The notes under the pieces: generated by a model | Database searches by the model: none | What the model saw: the letters and a program-made list of their open reading frames with translations, nothing else | Told to the model about the DNA's origin: nothing | Made by a program: the position numbers and the translations under genes | Shown: piece after piece, positions 1 to 11,390 of the stretch | Numbering within the stretch: the first letter of the stretch is position 1 | How the letters are laid out: each line of letters begins with the position of its first letter | Virus record (IMG/VR): IMGVR_UViG_2690316028_000012 | Length of the DNA stretch: 11,390 bases | From: a virus | Lineage: Duplodnaviria; Heunggongvirae; Uroviricota; Caudoviricetes | Strand: one strand, 5' to 3'

Positions 1-1260
1 ATGCCAAAACTCACAGACATGCAGATCCGCGCATGGATAAAGGCCGGGGAGCGATTCGAGGGACGCTCTGACGGTAACGGGCTTTATCTTTCATACCGCG
101 AAAACTACCAGACCCCCGTCTGGCGATTCCGCTATAAATTCGCAGGGAAACCCCGCGCCATGCTGATTGGCTCATATGCCGAGCTATCACTATCAAAGGC
201 CAGAGAGACAGCCAAAGAGCTATCGGCGCGTGTTGCGCTGGGTTATGACGTCGCGGGAGAGAAGCAGGAACGGAAAGCCGAAGCACTGGCGAAGATGGAA
301 GCAGAGAAGAACGCCATGCGCGTTTCAGAGCTTGCCGCTGAATACTTTGAGCGTCAGATCCTCCCGCGCTGGAAGCACCCCGATATACTCCGCCGCCGTA
401 TCGACAAAGATATAAACCCCTGCATTGGCAGCATGAAGGTAGAGGACGTGAAACCGCGCCATATCGATGACATGCTGAAAGGTATTGTTGACCGTGGAGC
501 GCCGACCATAGCAACGGACGTGCTGAGATGGACGCGCCGCATATTCGACTACGGAATCAAACGGCACGCGCTGGAGATTAACCCATGTTCAGCCTTTGAG
601 GTGGCAGACGCCGGAGGGAAAGAAGTTGCCCGTGACCGCTGGTTAACCCGCGATGAGTTAATCCAGCTATTCAAAGCCATGCGCACGGCTAAGGGATTCA
701 GTCGCCAGAACGAAATCACGTTCAAATTACTGTTAGCGTTATGCGTCCGCAAAATGGAGTTATGCGCCGCCCGCTGGGAGGAGTTCGATTTTGATAAAGC
801 TGTATGGCGCTTGCCAGAGGAACGCAGCAAAAACGGCGACGCTATAGACATCCCATTAGCACCGCCAGCCGTCGAATGGCTGAGAGAGCTTAAAACGTTC
901 TCATGCAACAGCGCATGGGTACTGCCAGCCAGAAAGATGCAAAACCGCATGATCCCACATATTCAGGAAAGCACTTTACCCGTAGCACTGGCTAAGGTTC
1001 GCGCCGAAATGCCGGATGTGCCTAATTTCACGATTCACGACTTCCGACGCACCGCACGTACTCATTTAGCAGCGTTGGGTGTTGATCCTGTCGTGGCGGA
1101 ACGATGCCTCAATCATCGCATTAAGGGCGTAGAGGGGATTTATAACCGCCATAAGTATTTTGATGAGCGTAAAGCAGCACTGGCACAGTGGGCTGATCTG
1201 CTGGTGGCACTGGAAAGCGGAAAAGACTACAACGTAACGCCTCTCAGAAGGGCGAACTAA
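1..1260 (+). CDS. int: Tyrosine-type site-specific integrase, P4/CP4-57 family
   Basis: 419-aa ORF. N-terminal region is typical of P4-like integrases (GLYLSY..WRFRYKF). C-terminal catalytic signature is present: R in LALCVRKMELCAARWEEFDF, H-x-x-R in HDFRRTART, and LNHR...GIYNRHKY carrying the catalytic Tyr. Confidence 0.9.
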   Translation: MPKLTDMQIRAWIKAGERFEGRSDGNGLYLSYRENYQTPVWRFRYKFAGKPRAMLIGSYAELSLSKARETAKELSARVALGYDVAGEKQERKAEALAKMEAEKNAMRVSELAAEYFERQILPRWKHPDILRRRIDKDINPCIGSMKVEDVKPRHIDDMLKGIVDRGAPTIATDVLRWTRRIFDYGIKRHALEINPCSAFEVADAGGKEVARDRWLTRDELIQLFKAMRTAKGFSRQNEITFKLLLALCVRKMELCAARWEEFDFDKAVWRLPEERSKNGDAIDIPLAPPAVEWLRELKTFSCNSAWVLPARKMQNRMIPHIQESTLPVALAKVRAEMPDVPNFTIHDFRRTARTHLAALGVDPVVAERCLNHRIKGVEGIYNRHKYFDERKAALAQWADLLVALESGKDYNVTPLRRAN

Positions 1261-1267
1261 CTGAATA

Positions 1268-1323
1268 GATTGAGCCTAGCTCGACGGGGCGAAAAGCGGG
1301 AAGCCTTACCGCCTGGCTCAATC
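1268..1323. repeat. Perfect 9-bp inverted repeat GATTGAGCC / GGCTCAATC separated by 38 bp, in the int-cargo intergenic region
   Basis: 1268-1276 gattgagcc and 1315-1323 ggctcaatc are exact reverse complements. No T-run follows, so it is not a canonical terminator. Confidence 0.35.
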
Positions 1324-1355
1324 ACAAAATAAGGCGCAGCGTAAAAGGTGACGCA

Positions 1356-2321
1356 ATGAACGACTCTCATGAAACAACTGTGGTGCATAGAAATTTATGG
1401 CAGGAATCAGGTATTCCACCTTTGGACTACTGCACGATAGAGCGAGCATCAAAATTATTAAATTGTGAAATTGATGATATATGGCATTGGAAAGATAGAC
1501 TACATATAGACTTTTATGTCTATGCTGACTTTCTTGATTTCATTGAATCTGATGCCACCATCCACTTCAAAAAAGATGCTAATTTTATAACTGATTTATT
1601 ACTTATGTACCCAGAAGAAGTAAGGTTTACATTTCCTTTTCTTATTACCAGCGCAAGCAACGAAGTTTATATCCCAGCATCTGAAAGCGGTGCTTATGAG
1701 CTATTTTATGCACATAAACCACTGACAGTTGAAGACAGCGACAATAAAAATGTTTTTGAACAAATTGGCAAAAACTCTTTTATTGTAAGAAAATCAATTG
1801 CATGTGGATTGTTGCGTGTACGCGGTAGAACAACACGACATTATCATTCACAAGAATGTGGAGAACCATATGTGCGACTTGAAGCAACATTTGATTGTGA
1901 TCTATATAAGTTCAAAATGCAAAGTTCCCAAATTCACCTGAGTAGCCTGTCAGATAAAAACATTTATATAACAAAGGCTGATTTAGAATACCTTCATGAC
2001 GCAAAGGTTAATGGAAGTTTTGACGCAGCTAAGAGCAAAAAACGATACGAAATGGCGGTAGAACAGGAACTAATACCTGAAATAAAAAATAGCAACCATA
2101 ATGCCGAGAGACATGCTGAAAACAGGGAAAAACTTTTCAAATCTGCAATATATCTTTTGTCAAAGTATCCTGATGAATGCCGTGGCAAAAAGAAAGAAAT
2201 AAGCCCTGAGAAGTGGCGGGATTGCATAGTGGCTCATAAAGACGAAATTCCACCGTTAGCAATCACAAATGAAGATGTGATTTTGAGACACTTACGTGCT
2301 GCCGCCAACGGTAAGGGGTAG
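1356..2321 (+). CDS. Hypothetical protein, low-GC cargo gene of unknown function
   Basis: 321-aa ORF with RBS aaaaggtga 7 nt upstream of the ATG. Visibly AT-rich and rich in AAA/AAT/ATT/TTT codons compared with flanking genes. Followed by a strong intrinsic terminator. No catalytic or nucleotide-binding motif recognised by eye. Confidence 0.7.
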   Translation: MNDSHETTVVHRNLWQESGIPPLDYCTIERASKLLNCEIDDIWHWKDRLHIDFYVYADFLDFIESDATIHFKKDANFITDLLLMYPEEVRFTFPFLITSASNEVYIPASESGAYELFYAHKPLTVEDSDNKNVFEQIGKNSFIVRKSIACGLLRVRGRTTRHYHSQECGEPYVRLEATFDCDLYKFKMQSSQIHLSSLSDKNIYITKADLEYLHDAKVNGSFDAAKSKKRYEMAVEQELIPEIKNSNHNAERHAENREKLFKSAIYLLSKYPDECRGKKKEISPEKWRDCIVAHKDEIPPLAITNEDVILRHLRAAANGKG

Positions 2322-2337
2322 AGTAGCTAACTATTCA

Positions 2338-2367
2338 GGCACAGTATCATTACTGTGCCTTTTTATT
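2338..2367 (+). terminator. Rho-independent terminator downstream of the cargo gene
   Basis: 9-bp perfect stem GGCACAGTA / TACTGTGCC with 4-nt loop tcat, immediately followed by TTTTTATT. Confidence 0.75.
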
Positions 2368-2389
2368 GTTCATATATGTACAGATACTT

Positions 2390-2434
2390 CCTCCCGTAAC
2401 GAAGCAACAACTATCGCTAAGAGGTTACGGGAAG
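2390..2434. promoter_or_regulatory. Inverted repeat (cCtCCCGTAAC ... GTTACGGGAAg) spanning the alpA ribosome-binding site; candidate operator or translational-control hairpin
   Basis: 8-bp perfect core CCCGTAAC (2393-2400) / GTTACGGG (2424-2431), 10 of 11 over the extended arms, 23-bp spacer. The 3' arm contains the GGGAAG Shine-Dalgarno of alpA (ATG at 2436). Confidence 0.35.
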
Positions 2435-2435
2435 C

Positions 2436-2639
2436 ATGAACACCGACACTATTCCTACAAAAGGCTATATCAGACGCTTCCGCCTGGCTGAATTGCTGGG
2501 CGTTAGTGTATCCACCATTGATCGCAAAGTTCGCAGCGGCTCGCTACCGCGCCCGGTAAAGCTGGGGGAGAAGATTACCGCCTTTGATGCGGTAGAGATT
2601 AATAACTGGCTGGCGGAGCGCCGGGGAAAGGTGGCGTAA
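2436..2639 (+). CDS. alpA: AlpA-family phage transcriptional regulator (excisionase-like HTH)
   Basis: 67-aa protein with the characteristic AlpA HTH core RLAELLGVSVSTIDRKVRSGSLPRPVKLGEKITAFDAVEINNWL. Confidence 0.85.
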   Translation: MNTDTIPTKGYIRRFRLAELLGVSVSTIDRKVRSGSLPRPVKLGEKITAFDAVEINNWLAERRGKVA

Positions 2640-3073
2640 TGAAAAAGAAAAACCGCCCCGTACAGCAGGCGGATAAATCAGATATTCGCACGTCTGATAT
2701 TACGCCGACCACCAGCCCGGTACAAGTACCTAAGCGAACCCCAAAGAAACACCGCGCCCGCGTCTATATGCTGCGTACTGGTATAGAGGGATGGACAGAA
2801 AACGATATTCTGCGTTATTGCCGCCTTTCGTCTGGAAGGAACTACGCCAGCGAGTTAGAGCGCAGGCTTGATATTCAGCTTGAGCGTATAGACGAAAAGA
2901 ACCCCGACGGGATAGGGTCACATTTACGCTATCGCTTTACCGGGCGCGGTGACGTTCTAAAAGTTATTCGGCTTGTGAACCATAACGCCGACGCTGGCGG
3001 CTATCAGGGACTTTCTCAGCCTGAAATTGCCGACATTCTCAATCTATACCCGGACAATCTCACCGCCGCCTAA
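2639..3073 (+). CDS. Hypothetical protein
   Basis: 144-aa ORF. Its ATG overlaps the alpA stop (TAATG), and RBS aaaggtgg lies upstream. Basic N-terminus. No motif recognised. Confidence 0.55.
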   Translation: MKKKNRPVQQADKSDIRTSDITPTTSPVQVPKRTPKKHRARVYMLRTGIEGWTENDILRYCRLSSGRNYASELERRLDIQLERIDEKNPDGIGSHLRYRFTGRGDVLKVIRLVNHNADAGGYQGLSQPEIADILNLYPDNLTAA

Positions 3074-3085
3074 CGGAGACTGAAA

Positions 3086-3919
3086 ATGAACATCGAAAAA
3101 AGCAGATTAATTTCTGAGGCCGCCCCTCATCTGAACGCCTATCAGGGCACAATTAACGGTAATGAATTTGCCGCAATTGTCCCGGTTATTCCTGGTCATA
3201 TCGGTGGGCGTGAAACCAATATTGTTAGCGCAAAAGCGTTACACAAAGCGTTGGGCGTGGGAAAAGACTTCTCTACATGGATCACTGATCGCATCTCTGA
3301 ATATGACTTCACCATTGGGCACGATTACTCAGTCCATAAAACAATTTCCCCAAATCTGGGGAAAAGCCCGAATGGCACGGCTTACAGCAAGATTAAACAG
3401 TCTGGCAGACCCGGCAAAGACTATCTGTTAAGTGTCGGAATGGCGAAAGAACTGGCGATGGTCGAACGCACCGAACAGGGCCGCGCTATCCGCCGTTATT
3501 TCATCCAGTGCGAGGAAGAATTACAGCGTAGCGTGCCTGAAATCGCCGCCCGCTATCGTCGCCAGCTAAAAGCCCGTATCGGTGCCGCCAACCTGTTTAA
3601 ACCGATGTGCGTAGCGCTGGAAAGCGCCCGCGCAGAACAGGGTAAACAGACGCAGGCTCGCCACTACAGCAACGAGAGCAACATGATCGCCCGTATCGTG
3701 CTGGGTGGCATGACGGCGAAGCAGTGGGCGCAGGCAAATGGCATTACTGGCGAACCACGGGACAGCATGAACGCAGCACAGCTTGAACACCTCGCCTATC
3801 TCGAAAGCACCAATATCACGTTAATTGATATGGGCATGGAATATGAGCAGCGCAAAGGAGAACTCACCCGCCTGTCGCAACGCTGGCTCGCTAAACGTCT
3901 GGAGGTAAACCATGCGTAA
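3086..3919 (+). CDS. Phage antirepressor-like protein with N-terminal AntA/AntB-type domain
   Basis: 277-aa ORF. N-terminal segment SAKALHKALGVGKDFSTWITDRISEYDFTIGHDY resembles the AntA/AntB antirepressor domain consensus as recalled; not searched. Confidence 0.65.
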   Translation: MNIEKSRLISEAAPHLNAYQGTINGNEFAAIVPVIPGHIGGRETNIVSAKALHKALGVGKDFSTWITDRISEYDFTIGHDYSVHKTISPNLGKSPNGTAYSKIKQSGRPGKDYLLSVGMAKELAMVERTEQGRAIRRYFIQCEEELQRSVPEIAARYRRQLKARIGAANLFKPMCVALESARAEQGKQTQARHYSNESNMIARIVLGGMTAKQWAQANGITGEPRDSMNAAQLEHLAYLESTNITLIDMGMEYEQRKGELTRLSQRWLAKRLEVNHA

Positions 3920-4094
3920 CCACAATCCGATGCCGGGAAGCCGTTACAAGGACAGTCACGGGGCTGTAGTGACCGTACAGCGCGTCGAGCATAACCGTGT
4001 GACCTTTTACCGCGAGGGCTATCAGTCGCCATGTGTTCAGCCTTTGGAGAGATTCGTTAATGAGTTCGTGGAGGTGCGCCGTGATACTGAATGA
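3912..4094 (+). CDS. Small hypothetical protein (possibly the DUF4222-like small prophage protein family)
   Basis: 60-aa ORF. Start overlaps the upstream stop in ATGCGTAA, with GGAGGT 5 nt upstream. The family assignment is from memory only. Confidence 0.5.
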   Translation: MRNHNPMPGSRYKDSHGAVVTVQRVEHNRVTFYREGYQSPCVQPLERFVNEFVEVRRDTE

Positions 4095-4381
4095 ACCTGC
4101 CGCCCAGAAAGAAGCCTTTAATCTGGCTGGCATGTTGTCAAAAGTTGACATCTGCAACCTTACAAAACCTGATATTGATACCGCAGCGCCCGGAGTTCCG
4201 TTACCAGTACGCGAGGCGCTTACCCTCAACAAAAAGATGGTGAGCCGTGCACAGGAAAAACTCTTAAAGGGTTACGGTTTTATCTGGTATGACCACCTAG
4301 CAGAGAAAAGCTGTTATAGTCCAAGCGTTGCTGCAAAATCAGCAACCGGGATTGGAACCCCGAACACACTAAGGGCGACAC

Positions 4382-4404
4382 AGACGCCGAAAGCGTCTTT
4401 TTTT
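4382..4404 (+). terminator. Candidate intrinsic terminator inside the operon
   Basis: Stem AGACGC (4382-4387) / GCGTCT (4393-4398), loop cgaaa, followed by a run of seven T to 4404. Confidence 0.5.
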
Positions 4405-4593
4405 GTGTCCGATCACCACGCACATCAAATCAGCGGCCTTGCCCGTACTGTATCTATGGTGGCGTTAGTGGGGCTACGTTCGCGTAGGCCGGTTTCCTTT
4501 GTGTCCGGTAGTTCCAACCCTGCTAACGTCACCGCCACTATTAAGATTGGAACCTTATGCGGTGACTCCTTAAACACAAAGGAGGCTGCCATA

Positions 4594-5849: not shown

Positions 5850-6191
5850 ATGATTACTAAAAATTTCCGACTGAATGCGCTGGCGAATAAGTATGCGTCG
5901 GCACTGTATAACCACATTACCTCCACCAGCGGCGGGGACTATTTCATGGTTGATGCGGACGGCCTCGCCGTCCGTGTGGAAATCGTCAATGGAGTAAAAG
6001 GCGTTCGCAGCCTGATCGATAGCTACACACTGGCAGCCATGAAAGTGTTCTACCCGCAGTGGGAAACCGTGGGGATCGAGCTTCTTGATCGTTGCGTCAC
6101 TAAGGACGGATTGACTGACGTCGGGCGCGAGATATGGCAAAGCATGATTAATGATATGGGCGCGACCGTGGCAGGAGGCAACCATGCGTAA
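5850..6191 (+). CDS. Hypothetical protein (113 aa)
   Basis: RBS gaggga upstream of ATG 5850. Stop overlaps the primase start in ATGCGTAA. Confidence 0.55.
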   Translation: MITKNFRLNALANKYASALYNHITSTSGGDYFMVDADGLAVRVEIVNGVKGVRSLIDSYTLAAMKVFYPQWETVGIELLDRCVTKDGLTDVGREIWQSMINDMGATVAGGNHA

Positions 6192-8949
6192 TATCGACCT
6201 TATCCGCGAAGTGACCAGCGCCGCAGCAGGGCGCTGGCCTTATGTGCTGGCTGGATTGTCTATCGACGTGCCTGATTCATCGCGCCGCCATTCTCCATGC
6301 CCTGCATGTGGTGGAAAAGACCGTTTCAGATTCGACGACAACGGGCGCGGTAGCTTTATCTGCAACCAGTGTGGCGCTGGTGACGGGCTGGATTTAATCA
6401 AGCGGGTTAACAACTGCGACACTACGGAGGCGGCACAGCTTGCCGCTGACGTGCTGGGTATTGATTACCAGGCAGCGCAAACCGACCCGGTGGCAGCGAG
6501 CCATAGAAGAGAGCAACTGGAAGCTGACCGCCAGCAGCGTGAGCAGGAGCGCCAGAAACAGGCAGCAGAGGACGCAGAGCAGCGAAGGGCTACGTTTGCC
6601 CATCTGTATGCCGGAATGCGCCAGAGTGCCACACAGGGCGAATCTGATTACCTGCAATCAAAAGGGCTGACCGGGTTTAACTATCCGGTTATGCCGGATG
6701 GTTCGTTATTGCTGGAGCTGGTGGACGAATCCGGCGCAGTGGCAGCAGCGCAAACCATTACACCGCAGGGAGAGAAGCGACTCCTGACAGGTTCAGCAAA
6801 GCGCGGGGCATATCACGCCGTAAACGCGCCAGAATCGCCGCAGAGCGTTTTAATTGCCGAGGGGCTGGCAACCGCTTTATCAGTCCACCTGATGCGCCCT
6901 GACGCGCTGACAGTGTGCGCCATTGATGCGGGCAACCTGCTACCCGTTGCCGAAGTGATGCGCCGGATATATCCAGCCACGCAGATTATCATTGCCGCAG
7001 ATAACGACCACCAGCAGGACGAACAGGCGAACACGGGCAAAGATGCCGCAGAGAAAGCCGCCTTATCCGTGGCTGGCTGGGTGGCACTGCCGCCGACAGA
7101 CTACAAAGCCGACTGGGACGACTACCGCCAGCAAAACGGGCTGGAAGTCGCTACGGCTGCGTTTAACGATTCGATGTACCAGATTCAAGGGGAAGCCGTG
7201 AAACCGCGATTGCAAGCCATTGAGGGCGGTAAAACTGACCATCCAGAGAAAGATCCACTAAAACCCCACATTGAGAGCCGCAAAGATGGCGTTTTCTGGG
7301 TAACGCCGAAGGTGGACAAGGAAAGCGGGGAGATCGTCAACGCTGAAAGCTGGTTATGTTCCCCGTTGGAGGTTATCGGCACGGGACGCGACGACAAAGA
7401 TCAGTATCTTATTATCTCATGGCTGGCATTCGGTGCAGGCATACCGACAACAGCGGCTATCCCGCTGGCTGATATTGGCGAGCGTGAAGGCTGGCGCACC
7501 CTGAAAGCTGGTGGCGTCAACGTCACAACGAAAAACAGCCTACGGGCGATTCTTGCCGACTGGTTACAGCGAAGCGGCTCGCGTGAATTGTGGCGCGTTG
7601 CTCATGCTACAGGCTGGCAGTGCGGGGCATACATCATGCCGGACGGGGAAATCATCGGCACACCTGAGCGGCCTGTTTTGTTCAGCGGGCGCAGTTCAGC
7701 CGCTGCCGGGTATACCGTAGCAGGAACGTCGGAAAGCTGGCGTAACAGTGTTGCGCGGCTGGCATACGGTAATTACGCGATGATGACAGGCATCGCCGCA
7801 GCACTGGCAGCGCCATTAATCGGGGTGGCAGATCGTGACGGATTCGGGATTCATTTTTATGAGCAATCGAGCGCCGGGAAAACAACCACGCAGAACGTGG
7901 CGAGCAGTCTATACGGCAACCCTGATGCCTTGCGCCTGACGTGGTACGGGACGGCGCTGGGGCTGATAAACGAGGCCGCCGCCCACAATGACGGGCTGAT
8001 GCCACTGGATGAAGTCGGACAGGGCGCTGACCCGATAAGCGTTTCTCAGTCTGCCTATGCCCTGTTTAACGGCGTGGGGAAATTGCAGGGAGCAAAGGAA
8101 GGAGGCAACCGGGATCTGAAACGCTGGCGCACCGTGGCAATCAGCACCGGGGAAGTGGACTTAGAAACCTTCATCGCCACCGCCGGACGCAAGACCAAAG
8201 CCGGGCAACTGGTGCGCTTGCTGAATATCCCGTTAAGTAAGGCGGTGCGCTTTCATGAACACCAGACAGGGAAAGAACACGCCGACGCGCTGAAAGATGC
8301 TTATCAGCACCATCATGGCGCTGCCGGGAGGGAGTGGATCAGATGGCTTTCAGACCACCAGCAACAGGCGATTGATGTCGTTCGTGAGTGTGAAGCCCGC
8401 TGGCGCAGTCTAATCCCTGCCGACTATGGGGAACAGGTTCACCGTGTAGGGGCAAGATTTGCCATTCTGGAGGCCGCTTTACTGATGGGTGGCGTGGTTA
8501 CTGGCTGGGATGCTCAAACGTGCCGGGATGCGATACAGCACGCCTATAACGCATGGCTAAAAGAGTTCGGCACGGGGAACAAAGAGCACCAGCAGATCAT
8601 CGAGCAGGCGGAGGCATTTTTAAATGCCTATGGCCTGAGTCGATTCGCGCCGCTGCCTTACGACCCCGCCAGCCTGCCGATTCATAATCTGGCTGGATAC
8701 AGGCAGCGCGGAAATCATGACGATTCACCGATAACGTTTTACACGTTCCCCGACACTTTCGATAAGGATATTGCTAAGGGGTTTAACAGGCAGCAGGTGG
8801 CCCGCGTCCTGAAAGAATCGGGGATGCTTACCCCTTCGGCAGACGGAAAAAAATTTCAGAGGAAAAGCCCGCGCATTCAGGGGAGGCAGATTAACGTTTA
8901 CGTTTTGCAATTCCTGCCGGATGGGGAGGAAAGCCAGCCAGAGCAATAA
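6184..8949 (+). CDS. Replication primase-helicase (P4 alpha-like: zinc-ribbon + TOPRIM primase + DUF927/D5-type NTPase)
   Basis: Start placed at ATG 6184 (AGGAGG 5 nt upstream) rather than the tracker's 6151. C4 zinc ribbon CPACGGKDRFRF...FICNQCG. TOPRIM motifs LIAEGLATALS and IIIAADNDHQ. P-loop-like YEQSSAGKTT and Walker-B-like LMPLDEVG in the C-terminal half. Confidence 0.9.
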   Translation: MRNIDLIREVTSAAAGRWPYVLAGLSIDVPDSSRRHSPCPACGGKDRFRFDDNGRGSFICNQCGAGDGLDLIKRVNNCDTTEAAQLAADVLGIDYQAAQTDPVAASHRREQLEADRQQREQERQKQAAEDAEQRRATFAHLYAGMRQSATQGESDYLQSKGLTGFNYPVMPDGSLLLELVDESGAVAAAQTITPQGEKRLLTGSAKRGAYHAVNAPESPQSVLIAEGLATALSVHLMRPDALTVCAIDAGNLLPVAEVMRRIYPATQIIIAADNDHQQDEQANTGKDAAEKAALSVAGWVALPPTDYKADWDDYRQQNGLEVATAAFNDSMYQIQGEAVKPRLQAIEGGKTDHPEKDPLKPHIESRKDGVFWVTPKVDKESGEIVNAESWLCSPLEVIGTGRDDKDQYLIISWLAFGAGIPTTAAIPLADIGEREGWRTLKAGGVNVTTKNSLRAILADWLQRSGSRELWRVAHATGWQCGAYIMPDGEIIGTPERPVLFSGRSSAAAGYTVAGTSESWRNSVARLAYGNYAMMTGIAAALAAPLIGVADRDGFGIHFYEQSSAGKTTTQNVASSLYGNPDALRLTWYGTALGLINEAAAHNDGLMPLDEVGQGADPISVSQSAYALFNGVGKLQGAKEGGNRDLKRWRTVAISTGEVDLETFIATAGRKTKAGQLVRLLNIPLSKAVRFHEHQTGKEHADALKDAYQHHHGAAGREWIRWLSDHQQQAIDVVRECEARWRSLIPADYGEQVHRVGARFAILEAALLMGGVVTGWDAQTCRDAIQHAYNAWLKEFGTGNKEHQQIIEQAEAFLNAYGLSRFAPLPYDPASLPIHNLAGYRQRGNHDDSPITFYTFPDTFDKDIAKGFNRQQVARVLKESGMLTPSADGKKFQRKSPRIQGRQINVYVLQFLPDGEESQPEQ

Positions 8950-8975
8950 TCTTTTTCACGTGCGAGGTTTTTTGT

Positions 8976-9233
8976 GGTGGTTCAGGTGGTTCAGGTGGTT
9001 CAGTAAGTAATTGTTATTGATTTATAATGTTTTTTTGTAAGAAATTGAACCACCACTGAACCACCAAACGGGTATTTTGAACCACCAGAGAGAAACGGAT
9101 TATTTTCACTGGCTGGCAGTGAACCACCAAGAAGGGCGACTGAACCACCAGATAAATTTAAAAGGTGGTTCAGCAAAACCCAGAGTTGGCGCGGCCTAGA
9201 GGGGTACTGAACCACTGAACCACCTGAACCACC
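8976..9233. repeat. Iteron cluster (GGTGGTTCAG / CTGAACCACC, ~12 copies in both orientations) flanking an AT-rich segment; probable replication origin
   Basis: Forward copies at 8976, 8985, 8994 (tandem, 9-bp period) and 9164. Reverse copies at 9046, 9056, 9078, 9120, 9140, 9207 (partial), 9216, 9225. AT-rich stretch at 9004-9046. Sits immediately 3' of the primase gene. Confidence 0.8.
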
Positions 9234-9337
9234 AACTTTTTTGTTTATATACCAATAAATCTGGCGAAGGTGTCCCACAATAAGACGGAGCCGGGTAATC
9301 TTCATTAGCAAAACTAATAATTCGAGGTATTCGCAAA

Positions 9338-9799
9338 ATGACAGCACAGATATCAGCCTACGGGCGGCTGGTGGCAGATCCCCAGACCAGAACGACAAAC
9401 AGCGGCGGCAGCATGGCAATGGGACGGTTAGCGGTGGCACTGCCCTGCCATGCAGCAGAGGGCGGAGAGGTTACTTTCTGGCTGGGCGTGGTGGCATTCG
9501 GCAAACAGGCCGACGCACTGGCAGGGCACGTTAAAGGCGATTTAGTCAGTGTTGCCGGAGCGATGCAGATCAATCAGTGGACGGGCAAGGATGGCGGTAC
9601 ACAGCAAGGTTATCAGGTAGTAGCCGACAGTGTGATCAGCGCCAGAACGGTACGCCCCGGCGGGAAGCGGGCCGAATCAGTCAAAGCAAGCGGAGCCAGC
9701 AGAGGCCACGCAACACAATCCGCGCCGGGATGGGAGTTATATAACACCCCTGATGATTTTGACCAGCGCCCGCCGTTTGATGATGAAGATCCATTCTGA
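9338..9799 (+). CDS. ssb: Single-stranded DNA-binding protein (SSB)
   Basis: 153-aa ORF. OB-fold region aligns by eye with E. coli SSB (GRLVADPQTRTTNSGG; VVAFGKQADALAGHVKGDLVSVAGAMQINQWTGKDGG). Acidic C-terminal tail ends DDEDPF (canonical SSB tail is DDDIPF). Confidence 0.8.
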   Translation: MTAQISAYGRLVADPQTRTTNSGGSMAMGRLAVALPCHAAEGGEVTFWLGVVAFGKQADALAGHVKGDLVSVAGAMQINQWTGKDGGTQQGYQVVADSVISARTVRPGGKRAESVKASGASRGHATQSAPGWELYNTPDDFDQRPPFDDEDPF

Positions 9800-9810
9800 G
9801 GGGGATACAC

Positions 9811-10122
9811 ATGGTAAACGACAGGAAAGCCGAGGAACTGGAAGCAAAGGGGCTGTATCGCAGGGCAGCTACACGCTGGCAGGAAGTCATGATGATTTGT
9901 GCTGAGGACGATGATCGGGAATGGGTAAAGCAGCGACGTGATACGTGTCTGACGAACGTGAAGCGCCCGCCAGTGAAAACCGATGATTACGGCGATCTGC
10001 ATAAAGCAGTCACTGAGACACAACACCGCATGGGGATAGCGCAACCAAACGGCAACGCCTTCCGATTAAACGGTGGTAAGAAGCAACGACAGGCCACCAG
10101 CGGGGGCGACAGTTCGCAGTAA
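9811..10122 (+). CDS. PerC-family transcriptional regulator-like protein
   Basis: 103-aa ORF. N-terminus KAEELEAKGLYRRAATRWQEVMM matches the PerC/Pch family signature as recalled. RBS gaggggga upstream. Confidence 0.7.
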   Translation: MVNDRKAEELEAKGLYRRAATRWQEVMMICAEDDDREWVKQRRDTCLTNVKRPPVKTDDYGDLHKAVTETQHRMGIAQPNGNAFRLNGGKKQRQATSGGDSSQ

Positions 10123-10536
10123 GGTTCGCACCAAAACGGCTGTAAATTCTGTACTGTTCTTGACAGATTTTAAACCCTCGTAGCGCTAAACCCGCGCCAG
10201 TCGCGGGCTGGAAGCCAGAACGTGATTTAGGTTGTCCATAATATTCTGGTTCGCGCCACTGGTTCGCAGTACGCAGTCAGGTACGCGGCAAAACTGCGCA
10301 TTCAGCGTGCGTACCATCTGACGGATTCTAACGGCGGCAATGCGATTTGCGCAGTTCACAAAAAATCTGCGCAAAACGAAACGGATACCAATGCGCAAAC
10401 CATCCTCAACCCCGCGCGGTTACTGGCTTTATTGATGTGAAATTGCAAAATTGGTGCGCAATTTACAGTAAAATACGCATATTATTTCGTATTCAATTTG
10501 CGCACCGTTCGCAGTTAATGCGCAGTAATTCGCAGG
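10113..10536. repeat. Array of at least 10 TGCGCA / TTCGCAGT(A) motifs in a ~420-bp non-coding block; candidate regulator- or replication-protein-binding array
   Basis: TTCGCAGTAA at 10113; GGTTCGCACC at 10123; GGTTCGCGCC at 10248; GGTTCGCAGTA at 10261; TGCGCA at 10294; TGCGCAGT at 10348; TGCGCAAA at 10368 and 10392; TGCGCAAT at 10455; TGCGCAC at 10499; TTCGCAGTT at 10508; TGCGCAGTAA at 10519; TTCGCAGG at 10529. Also a TTGACA at 10160 and a GC palindrome CCCGCG-ccagt-CGCGGG at 10191-10207. Confidence 0.5.
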
Positions 10537-10546
10537 AGGCCAGCCA

Positions 10547-10747
10547 GTGAGAGACAGAACGCGCAGCTATACCACCGACCTGCCCCGTATAGGGTTGCCA
10601 TTCCTTACGAACATGCGTCGCAGGCTGACGGACGCCGAACCGGGTACACAGCTTTATACCCAGACCGAAAGCGGAACGTTGTATACCTTCCGGCAAGCCG
10701 ACAGCTACGCCATTGCCGCCCAGTCGGCATTATCTGGAAGGGAATAG
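10547..10747 (+). CDS. Small hypothetical protein (66 aa), GTG start
   Basis: AGGAGG at 10534-10539, 7 nt upstream of GTG 10547. No recognisable motif. Confidence 0.4.
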   Translation: MRDRTRSYTTDLPRIGLPFLTNMRRRLTDAEPGTQLYTQTESGTLYTFRQADSYAIAAQSALSGRE

Positions 10748-10750
10748 CTT

Positions 10751-10769
10751 GCAATTGATAATCATTATC
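10751..10769. promoter_or_regulatory. Fur-box-like palindrome (gcaattGATAATCATTATC)
   Basis: 16 of 19 positions match the Fur consensus GATAATGATAATCATTATC, with a perfect GATAAT-c-ATTATC inverted hexamer core. Target transcript unknown. Confidence 0.4.
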
Positions 10770-11030
10770 TTTTCGGGTCCTTTCCGGCGATCCGCCCTGT
10801 TACGGGGCGGCGTCCGCGCAGATTCTCGATATATATGAGAATTTTTCTGGTTTTTGCCGTTTCCGTTCTTCTTCATGCTATCTCTCTGTTTTTGCAGGAA
10901 ACACACCCTCAAAAGAAAGGGAATGGCTAGGCCTTAAAAACGGTAATTTTCCATTTGTTGTTTCCTTTCTCTGTTTTTCGCCTGGAGTTCGTCATGGAGG
11001 TTAATAAAAAACGCCCTGTGAATCATCGCT

Positions 11031-11390
11031 TTAACCAACCCGCTCGCATTCTCCATCAATCGCGTTATCAGCGCCGCCAGTATCGCGCATAACAGCACAT
11101 TGACCGGGTAAACCATAGCGCACGACCGTTGCGTTAGTTTCACCGCCACGCTTTACCTGACGAGATTCATACACTGTCACACGCCCCAGTAGCCCACCGG
11201 CAACCATGCTTTCGAGCGTGCGCCGTGTAGATTCGAGCTGGTGGCGCTTATCGAACGACACCATGCCATGAAGCAGGTAGGCCACACCCGACACATCGAA
11301 CGGCGGCGCACCAATCTCACCCGTCACCAATTCGAGGTTATCCGGCTCAAAGTAGCTGAGTATCATCTTTTTACGGCTGGTCATTCTCAT
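11031..11390 (-). CDS. Hypothetical protein (119 aa), convergent with the island genes; start coincides with the window edge, so the N-terminus may be cut
   Basis: Intact 360-nt minus-strand ORF with ordinary GC content. Not recognised by eye. Confidence 0.5.
   Translation of the reverse strand: MRMTSRKKMILSYFEPDNLELVTGEIGAPPFDVSGVAYLLHGMVSFDKRHQLESTRRTLESMVAGGLLGRVTVYESRQVKRGGETNATVVRYGLPGQCAVMRDTGGADNAIDGECERVG

Follow-up and report, generated by a model that had tools for sequence, protein, structure and literature searches.

[quoted passage not shown] The closest counterpart is found in Sp7 of E. coli O157:H7 Sakai (also CP-933C, O-island 51, or the cf-PICI EcCIEDL933), where the pair consists of ECs_1587 (ssb) and ECs_1588 (pchE); it was described in 2012 (PMC3378721), and EcCIEDL933 has been proven to be a satellite (bioRxiv 10.1101/2022.09.08.507074). 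That PICIs carry PerC variants has been on record since 2018. A further relative, EcCIMP1 of E. coli MP1, has been induced and transduced in experiments (PMC11773190). The origin of a PICI is defined by two iteron sets flanking an AT-rich region, 3' of pri-rep (PMC6092414).

The window considered here (the whole stretch of DNA analysed, 11,390 nucleotides, numbered from its first letter) has the same order as Sp7, namely an alpha-like primase, ssb, a gap of roughly 10 nt and a PerC homologue; the OB domains of the two SSBs are 61% identical. Sp7 differs in having its own capsid and terminase genes (it is a cf-PICI), in its site between roxA and phoQ, in an additional 83-aa ORF before ssb, and in the tail of its SSB, which ends in YGDGIPF versus PPFDDEDPF in the window; PchE is a protein of 90 aa without the basic C-terminal tail of the window PerC. 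With EcCIMP1 the window has a common backbone (identity 77% for orf144, 89% for AntA, 97% for orf113, 78% for the primase and 92% for orf119). EcCIMP1 differs in that it carries no ssb, is inserted at tRNA-Thr near proA, has genes for P22-like DNA ejection placed between its origin and perC, and depends on phage Kapi1, which is not a cos-type helper.

Phage P4 is similar in its alpha-type primase-helicase, short similar iterons, P4-type integrase, AlpA and Icd-like gene, and the window also carries C4/isrK-type RNAs, P4 having CI/C4-type RNA immunity. Homologues of psu, delta and sid were not found among the ORFs scanned (Pfam, PHROGs), and the element does not class as a P4-like satellite; judging from sequence likeness, its P4-like parts are those of replication, immunity and integration only. 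P4 is not known to encode an SSB and uses that of the host.

The satellite and its origin

The whole 11.4-kb window is a complete phage satellite of the PICI type, integrated between yicC and dinD. The long series of rightward genes closes with the primase-helicase and the iteron origin as a replication module, after which come ssb and perC. Its gene content is that of a Gram-negative PICI, with int, alpA and pri-rep all directed rightward and a length in agreement with the expected 10-15 kb or so. The left end is formed by a P4-type tyrosine integrase (1..1260, plus strand; Pfam Arm-DNA-bind_3, Phage_int_M and Phage_integrase), which adjoins yicC in the related loci L003-L005. An AlpA-family regulator gene (2436..2639, plus strand; Phage_AlpA, 33.7 bits) is, by homology, the putative PICI master activator gene. 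The P4-alpha-type primase-helicase gene pri-rep (6151..8949, plus strand) combines a Zn-ribbon, a Toprim domain and DUF927 (Zn_Ribbon_Prim 57.8 bits, Toprim_3 53 bits, DUF927 168.4 bits); the gene callers place its start at 6184, which gives 921 aa.

Near the right end, a lambda-type cos region (10770..10925, plus strand) aligns over 156 nt with phages HK225 and mEp237 at 83% identity, and is 77% identical to a lambda DE3 stretch annotated as ‘cos site’. It includes a cosN-like GGGCGGCGTCCG at 10803-10814 and a cosB-like CCGTTTCCGTTCTTCTTC, and this likeness suggests the site at which the element is packaged and by which it is linked to a lambdoid helper. Capsid, tail, lysis and terminase families were not found in the window ORFs by Pfam and PHROG profile searches, nor was a homologue of the packaging-redirection protein Rpp in PDB sequence searches, which covered orf144 and orf119 only.

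Between the primase and ssb lies the replication origin (8976..9233, no strand assigned), composed of 12 iterons TGAACCACC in two opposed sets. With at most one mismatch allowed, 12 matches were counted versus 2.2 expected, a number reached in none of the 200 shuffles. The first set comprises three inverted copies (8976-9002), and the second nine copies (9046-9233), one of them inverted (9164-9172); a 43-nt AT-rich stretch (9004-9045, 16% G+C) separates the two. The array begins 27 nt past the primase stop codon. Its layout, two iteron sets around an AT-rich region 3' of pri-rep, agrees with the PICI origin described in PMC6092414. Among the relatives the iteron sequence differs from element to element, yet its place just 5' of ssb is kept.

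The sequence-only reading had spoken of a satellite with ssb and perC downstream of an origin. Both points stand: the element combines int, alpA, pri-rep, an iteron origin and a lambda-type cos with no terminase, and has its backbone in common with an experimentally mobilised PICI, while ssb and perC follow directly 3' of the 12-iteron array. On the 3' side of perC the window is ORF-poor and looks eroded; orf66, located there, matches only the beginning of a longer ORF in locus L002. PerC heads a variable accessory region extending to the cos site.

The two genes and their products

The ORFs at 9338-9799 and 9811-10122 exist exactly as had been noted, and PGAP already names both genes. The first of them, ssb (9338..9799, plus strand, 153 aa), is preceded by GAGG 10 nt 5' of its ATG. 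Its assignment to the SSB family, made earlier from motifs, is confirmed by the HMM search (PF00436, 52.4 bits, cut-off 26, with residues 4-99 aligned to positions 3-101 of the 104-position model), by PHROG 44 (ssDNA-binding protein, E 1e-29) and by 26 solved SSB sequences in the PDB at E<=0.01 (best E 5e-9). The score for the ssb subfamily model TIGR00621 of NCBIfam, 50.3 bits, is under the cut-off of 53.95; despite this, PGAP calls the homologues ‘single-stranded DNA-binding protein’.

In the AF2 model, residues 3-101 form six strands and one helix, that is, an OB fold, with a block-mean pLDDT of 66-93 across residues 1-100. Foldseek placed this model with 194 PDB chains (E<=1e-3), of which the best 50 are all SSBs (target TM-scores 0.63-0.82), those of S. 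aureus and B. subtilis being at the top (0.76-0.82). The OB domain (about residues 1-103) leads through a disordered linker to a C-terminal tip that is acidic; residues 104-153 have a pLDDT below 50, and the end, PPFDDEDPF, may be compared with DFDDDIPF in the E. coli SSB (EcSSB; the reference sequence is identical to PDB 1eqq chain A). In the alignment the ending FDDxxPF, or more fully PPFDD(E/x)xPF, is that of most family members, and some have variants of it. On sequence, the tip resembles that of the host SSB, which recruits replisome and repair proteins.

The window protein has in common with the E. coli chromosomal and conjugative-plasmid SSBs the OB fold, the disordered linker and the acidic Pro-Phe tip. 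Of the four base-stacking aromatics of EcSSB three are kept, W54, F60 and W88 being aligned with W48, F54 and W81, which are invariant across the family alignment; the counterpart of Trp40 is Cys37. The differences are the identity of 25% to EcSSB, the length of 153 aa versus 178 aa in EcSSB (the linker is shorter), and a leucine (Leu49) instead of His55, a residue important for the EcSSB tetramer; leucine occupies this position across the family. In addition, the gene adjoins a satellite origin and not a plasmid leading region. Values of dN/dS against relatives, 0.13-0.20, indicate purifying selection. By homology and by the model we consider the product a genuine bacterial-type SSB, for which ssDNA binding is predicted.

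The perC-family gene (9811..10122, plus strand, 103 aa) starts 11 nt past ssb, and its ribosome-binding site GAGGGGG overlaps the ssb stop codon and lies 6 nt before the ATG. Here, too, the family proposed earlier was recovered by the HMM search: PF06069 matches at full length (107.6 bits, E 4e-31, cut-off 22.6, with residues 1-85 aligned to positions 1-85 of the 90-position model), and an identical protein in public records is titled ‘PerC family transcriptional regulator’. The window PerC is 82% identical to EcCIMP1_025 (93 residues), 54% to PchE and 37% to PerC of EPEC (84 residues), with which the signature KAExLExKGxYRRAAxRW is conserved. Its placement relative to the Pch group was made with PchE, EPEC PerC and EcCIMP1_025 only.

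In the AF2 model, three confident helices (5-13, 16-29 and 33-51) are followed by further helices at 63-74 and 79-84 and, after this second helical segment, by a disordered basic tail. The first 47-residue portion so modelled (residues 5-51) matches the ANR model of NCBIfam (ANR_neg_reg, NF033650) at a marginal 31.7 bits, 0.3 bits under the curated cut-off of 32; among the PerC-family members, 24 of 38 match it at E<=1e-3. The predicted three-helix domain fits the description of the ANR family (Aar, Rnr, Cnr; PMC4983702), whose members are below 10 kDa and have three helices only, while the window protein adds the helical segment 63-84 and the tail and has no AraC-family gene nearby. By sequence and model, the N-terminal three-helix domain is a probable homologue of the ANR anti-activators, and the ANR-like part would be a domain, not the whole protein. 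The PDB search yielded no sequence match among solved structures, and in Foldseek the AF2 model had no match with E below 0.95, the weak ones seen being three-helix bundles of MIT/TPR-like type.

The two closely spaced genes are probably co-transcribed. The scan of 8900-11390 revealed no sigma-70-like promoter, and its only terminator-like features were two weak hairpins of the minus strand; inspection by eye of the region 5' of ssb across the relatives revealed conserved blocks with no convincing -35/-10 pair. For ssb and perC together, dN/dS against relatives is 0.13-0.21, again purifying selection.

Proposed roles of the PerC-family protein and of the SSB

We presume that this PICI-type satellite encodes an SSB that serves as an auxiliary replication factor and a PerC-family protein that is an ANR-like regulator acting on the host in trans; the probability of this reading is about 0.62. 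What is observed here is the presence of the genes, their families, predicted folds, position, conservation and purifying selection; all biochemical activities and all regulatory targets we infer.

The PerC protein would act in trans on host regulators, either AraC/XylS-type activators or H-NS or Ler, by protein-protein contact and not through a classical DNA-binding fold. ANR proteins work in this way, by binding AraC-family regulators and H-NS (PMC4983702, PMC10148876). EcCIMP1_025 silences LEE1-lux, and an ANR-like action was proposed for it in 2025; in the same assay EPEC perC activates (PMC11773190). Repression by this nearest homologue fits ANR behaviour, and by analogy with it the window protein may dampen LEE1 expression in a LEE-carrying host. 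More generally, adhesion and motility programmes may be shifted: PchE lowers csgD/curli and raises flagellar expression (PMC6265319, PMC7369912). That a mobile PerC homologue acts on chromosomal genes, as had been suggested for the window, is in this case already established.

It can also be supposed that the PerC protein regulates the life cycle of the satellite or its helper and not host physiology, for example by lifting the silencing of the island by H-NS or by adjusting late genes of the helper. PICIs repeatedly carry PerC-like genes (PMC6092414, PMC11773190, PMC13612085), which occur in N4-like and lambdoid phages as well, most of them unlinked to LEE; in addition, ANR proteins bind H-NS (PMC5570504). 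We nonetheless consider this rather unlikely. Beside ssb, PerC is missing in 16 of the 29 species-level loci, and what so many related elements lack is no core function. Homologues that have been tested clearly affect host genes, and pchE is basally expressed (PMC6265319, PMC7369912) with a level that drops on SOS induction (PMC6265319), which is the reverse of a lytic-cycle gene.

As to the SSB, a helper phage would induce the island, and the primase-helicase would then unwind the adjoining origin; the island SSB would coat the exposed strands, and its tip would link them to host Pol III as well as to other proteins that interact with SSB. Satellite replication would be boosted in this way when host SSB is limiting. 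The position of the gene is consistent with the proposal: an alpha-type primase is found a few hundred bases 5' of ssb in 21 of the 29 loci (Enterobacterales), the other eight having none upstream, although contig edges truncate some of these, and the adjacency of ssb to the origin is maintained across genera. The factor is probably auxiliary and not essential. EcCIMP1, though a close relative, has no ssb and still excises, replicates and transfers (PMC11773190), so an SSB is not required in such replicons. For the same reason, and since no polymerase is encoded, the self-sufficient replication proposed in the sequence-only reading was overstated. No experimental work on PICI SSBs was found in the literature searched.

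The sequence-only reading also raised interference with host or helper ssDNA transactions. The same dispensability leaves room for an SSB that serves mainly in conflict and not in replication, which we regard as improbable. Such a protein would compete with the host or helper SSB for partner proteins and throttle helper replication, its host-like acidic tip being able to titrate SSB-interacting proteins, or would serve as decoy or shield where a defence system senses SSBs of phages or ssDNA intermediates. Several defence systems are indeed set off by phage SSBs. Interference with helpers is common among satellites (PMC6739421); however, no interference phenotype was reported for the ssb-carrying cf-PICI EcCIEDL933, which spares its helpers (bioRxiv 10.1101/2022.09.08.507074). 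PADLOC gave no match for ssb, perC or the ORFs of unknown function, with the sole exception of a very weak PDC-S31 match for orf321. The place of ssb beside the origin is fixed while iterons and primases diverge, and this fits a replication accessory.

The sequence-only reading also raised an activation of ler by the PerC-like protein, as is the case for PerC of EPEC (pMAR2) and PchA/B/C of EHEC, which activate LEE1. These are of the same Pfam family and of similar length, with the same N-terminal signature, the window protein is a full-length family member, and some PICI-coded PerC homologues are stated to activate LEE (PMC6092414). This activation is very unlikely, in view of the homologues that have been assayed: EcCIMP1_025, far closer in sequence than EPEC PerC, silences LEE1, and PchE and the CFT073 PICI homologue affect it little or not at all, according to PMC11773190 and PMC6265319, which cite Porter 2005. 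The nearest tested relatives thus repress or do nothing, and EPEC perC shares its operon with perA, of the AraC family, a partner the satellite is without. That one or both genes are decaying cargo without present function is hardly credible: neither is universal in the element family and the DNA 3' of perC looks eroded, but the frames are intact across genera under the purifying selection given above, the key residues are invariant, both ribosome-binding sites are good, and 1721 complete E. coli genomes out of 5426 carry the satellite ssb family, of which there are roughly 2200 E. coli copies.

The slot after ssb

A small new point concerns the slot directly 3' of ssb, which in 20 of the 29 species-level loci is occupied by a PerC-like and/or a ProQ/FinO-like gene. 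An obligate, co-evolving ssb-perC pair was considered and rejected, because the relatedness of ssb and that of perC are discordant between loci; on these comparisons the two appear to be neighbours and no obligate pair. Nor does perC belong to plasmid leading regions beside a plasmid ssb, since the inspected plasmid copies adjoin AraC-family genes and IS elements. Two ‘plasmid’ records with the ssb-perC pair are of another nature: L011 is a chromosomal fragment holding a cf-PICI, and L012 is a circularised island assembled 1.26 times over.

It is tempting to see here a dedicated ‘post-origin’ regulator slot whose small proteins, binders of nucleic acids or regulators, make up with the SSB an establishment or host-reprogramming module, which we offer as a doubtful conjecture. 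Such a module could adjust both RNA control and host silencing (H-NS, AraC-type activators) in a resident or replicating island, and the satellite SSB could have a second, non-replicative role. If true, this would let the satellite steer adhesion, motility and virulence towards its own spread.

Overall little is new: the two genes had been read correctly and were already annotated, and PerC has already been tested in close relatives. Roughly one in three complete E. coli genomes has the satellite SSB family, for which the literature searched yielded no test of a role in the life cycle. Of some practical value is that a PerC-like protein carried by a satellite should not be presumed to activate virulence; the nearest tested one is a LEE repressor, so that attaching-and-effacing pathogens with such an island may have a lowered expression of virulence.

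The island and its origin

The window is identical base for base to a segment lying between yicC and dinD in three public assemblies. It carries a P4-type integrase, AlpA, an AntA antirepressor, an Icd/Ash-like gene, a primase and an origin; near the right end there is a lambda-type cos region of 156 nt (10770-10925; cosN-like GGGCGGCGTCCG, cosB-like CCGTTTCCGTTCTTCTTC), which shares 83% identity over 156 nt with the cos regions of HK225 and mEp237, both phages, and 77% with the lambda DE3 feature annotated as the cos site. Terminase, capsid and lysis genes are absent from the window. The backbone is common to EcCIMP1, the phage-inducible chromosomal island (PICI) of E. coli MP1 (primase 78%, AntA 89%, orf113 97% and orf119 92% identity), and a helper phage was shown to induce and transduce EcCIMP1 (PMC11773190). 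Considering the gene content, the cos region without a terminase and this backbone, the label "satellite", proposed in the sequence-only reading, is sound, the satellite being of the PICI kind; we infer the helper dependence of this copy, and the lambda-type cos region points to a lambdoid, cos-type helper.

Rfam matches above the gathering score were obtained for int-alpA RNA (1269-1335) and, within the Icd/Ash-like ORF region, for c4-a1b1 RNA (4314-4366), isrK RNA (4327-4403) and C4 antisense RNA (4452-4539); together they indicate a putative RNA immunity system of the P4/P1 type. GGTGTAC(A/C) repeats at both island ends (475-664 and 12054-12360 in L004, which contains the window flanks in its genome) probably serve as arm sites for the integrase. 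A candidate att core is the 10-bp direct repeat GCAACATTCA, with one copy in L004 immediately behind yicC and the other ahead of dinD; it would give an island of about 11.9 kb.

The primase-helicase gene (6151-8949; Zn-ribbon/Toprim/DUF927) ends upstream of the iterons. Between its stop codon and ssb lies the origin (8976-9233) with 12 TGAACCACC iterons, compared to 2.2 expected, a number reached by no shuffle. They form two opposed sets flanking a 43-nt stretch of 16% G+C, which is the published origin design of Gram-negative PICIs (PMC6092414). The ssb-perC pair was thus rightly placed downstream of an origin, the iteron array being directly upstream of ssb. In the 130 nt 5' of ssb in the compared loci L015-L042, the iteron sequence varies by element (TGAACCACC, GAGACAAC, TGAACCAAC, GTTATCCC, GGTAGACA, GATAACCCG) while its position is kept, which suggests an exchange of origin and primase specificity types between related islands.

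Identity of the two proteins and the possible role of SSB

Both ORFs are present exactly where they had been claimed, ssb at 9338-9799 (153 aa) and the perC-like gene at 9811-10122 (103 aa), both on the plus strand, and this observation is confirmed in every respect. The family assignments are also correct: the first protein passed Pfam SSB with 52.4 bits (cut-off 26) and the second passed Pfam PerC over its full length (107.6 bits, E 4e-31).

For SSB, the sequence, predicted structure and conservation agree. It matches PHROG 44 (E 1e-29) and 26 solved SSBs at E<=0.01; the AF2 model folds residues 3-101 into an OB barrel and leaves the tail disordered from residue 104 on. Foldseek relates this model to 194 PDB chains at E<=1e-3, the best 50 of the 194 being all bacterial SSBs, with target TM-scores of 0.76-0.82 for the best matches. 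Identity to E. coli SSB (reference sequence identical to PDB 1eqq chain A) is only 25%; the stacking residues W54, F60 and W88 align with W48, F54 and W81, which are invariant in the alignment, whereas His55 is replaced by Leu and Trp40 by Cys. The tail end PPFDDEDPF is close to the host tip PPMDFDDDIPF, and the FDDxxPF tip is kept in most relatives; dN/dS of ssb against relatives is 0.13-0.20.

The family has 747 database relatives spread over Enterobacterales. It occurs in 1721 of 5426 complete E. coli genomes, where 2205 of the 2207 copies are chromosomal and the annotation is always SSB. In a survey of one genome per species it is carried at 29 Enterobacterales loci, in 21 of which an alpha-type primase precedes ssb by a few hundred bases. 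This constant placement next to an origin that itself diverges gives the strongest reason to propose a role for ssb in satellite replication. Such a role cannot be essential, since EcCIMP1 has the same replicon type without ssb; "self-sufficient replication" was therefore an overstatement.

Probable regulatory effect of the PerC-like protein

Public records already name an identical protein "PerC family transcriptional regulator". Identity is 37% over 84 aa to PerC of EPEC, 54% over 76 aa to PchE of O157 and 82% over 93 aa to EcCIMP1_025, the PerC-family protein of EcCIMP1. The nearest homologues with functional data contradict the activation of ler that had been proposed: in Citrobacter rodentium, LEE1-lux is silenced by EcCIMP1_025 under conditions in which EPEC perC activates it, and LEE1 fusions did not respond to the PerC-like genes carried by EcCIEDL933 and EcCICFT073 (PMC11773190). 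LEE is little affected by PchE, which represses csgD and curli and raises flagellar expression; these effects bear out the proposed cross-regulation of host genes in trans. The expression of PchE itself is basal and drops on SOS induction (PMC6265319, PMC7369912). These data on relatives do not fit an activator role.

The NCBIfam model of the AraC negative regulators (ANR) scores 31.7 bits against residues 5-51, 0.3 below the cut-off, and is matched by 24 of 38 PerC-family members at E<=1e-3. The AF2 model has three confident N-terminal helices, resembling the three described for ANRs (PMC4983702), then a second helical segment and a disordered basic tail; searches by sequence and by structure model gave no significant match to a solved structure. 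The ANR connection was already proposed by the authors of the EcCIMP1 paper (PMC11773190). Because the nearest tested relatives are non-activating and the domain is ANR-like, homology makes it most likely that the PerC-like protein would modulate host regulators (AraC-type activators, H-NS or Ler) by protein-protein contact, with a repressive effect on LEE in hosts where LEE exists.

PerC-like ORFs (37-44% identity over ~60 residues) are also observed near a record end in ~70-kb phages of Salmonella, Klebsiella and Escherichia (H68-H81, H89-H90; e.g., FSL SP-076, Pylas, KpCHEMY26 and Pollock), with the annotation "transcriptional activator"; we presume that these phages are N4-like.

Linkage of ssb and perC and the adjoining slot

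In the window sequence, the gap between the two genes is only 11 nt and the GAGGGGG ribosome-binding site of perC overlaps the ssb stop codon, so the genes look co-transcribed; a consensus scan gave neither a promoter nor a terminator for the pair. The order of primase, ssb and perC is as in Sp7 of O157 Sakai (ECs_1582, ECs_1587, pchE). Exactly these primase, ssDNA-binding and pchE genes were given in 2012 for O-island 51, along with the conservation of the ssDNA-binding gene in the islands of CFT073 and ED1a (PMC3378721); the current name of O-island 51 is cf-PICI EcCIEDL933. The window also has a 60-aa DUF4222 ORF (3912-4094) homologous to ECs_1581 (43% identity over 49 aa), i.e., RgdR, a type III secretion regulator encoded by O-island 51; in its length of 60 aa the window ORF resembles the short variants of 63 aa mentioned in the same paper (PMC3378721).

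Two further records with the pair are filed as plasmids. The first is a piece of chromosome containing a cf-PICI with a RepA-type helicase; the second (L012, NZ_CP033626.1, K. pneumoniae "plasmid unnamed1") represents a related island of 18.2 kb in circularised form. The latter was assembled about 1.26 times over (213-4559 repeated at 18417-22763), the att junction brings its integrase and orf119 homologue together, and it may reflect an excised, replicating satellite.

The linkage is nonetheless loose. A PerC-like ORF directly follows ssb in 7 of the 29 loci and lies within 3 kb in 13. In 11 loci the perC slot has a ProQ/FinO-like gene of ~155 aa (Pfam ProQ, 64-80 bits): directly 3' of ssb in L028, L029, L033, L034 and L036, also in L024, L030 and L041, and as remnants in three (L031, L035, L042). 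One or the other gene is found in 20 loci and neither in 9; the order in L036 is ssb, proQ-like, perC. The relatedness of ssb and perC is discordant between loci (e.g., L015: ssb 97%, perC 83%; L017: ssb 86%, perC 97%), which points to recombination between the two genes. Thus, ssb goes with the origin, and the variable accessory region that extends to the cos site begins with perC.

The stretch from perC to orf119 is a variable cargo slot, occupied in relatives by a PRiA4_ORF3-family gene and others. In the window, orf66 (10547-10747; GTG start, strong AGGAGG ribosome-binding site) matches, at 93% identity over 56 aa, only the beginning of a 203-aa ORF in the relative L002, and may therefore be a truncated cargo gene. 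Seven of the eight TGCGCA palindromes of the window cluster in the ORF-poor stretch between perC and orf66 (10295-10524; binomial P ~9e-11), several inside short inverted repeats, and may be an array of protein-binding sites.

Overall, the interpretation in the sequence-only reading is partly supported, being right in the families, the origin, the satellite label and the trans-regulation of host genes. Everything essential is already annotated or published. We found no description of the recurring PerC/ProQ slot adjoining ssb in the literature searched, and this slot is the one modestly new point.
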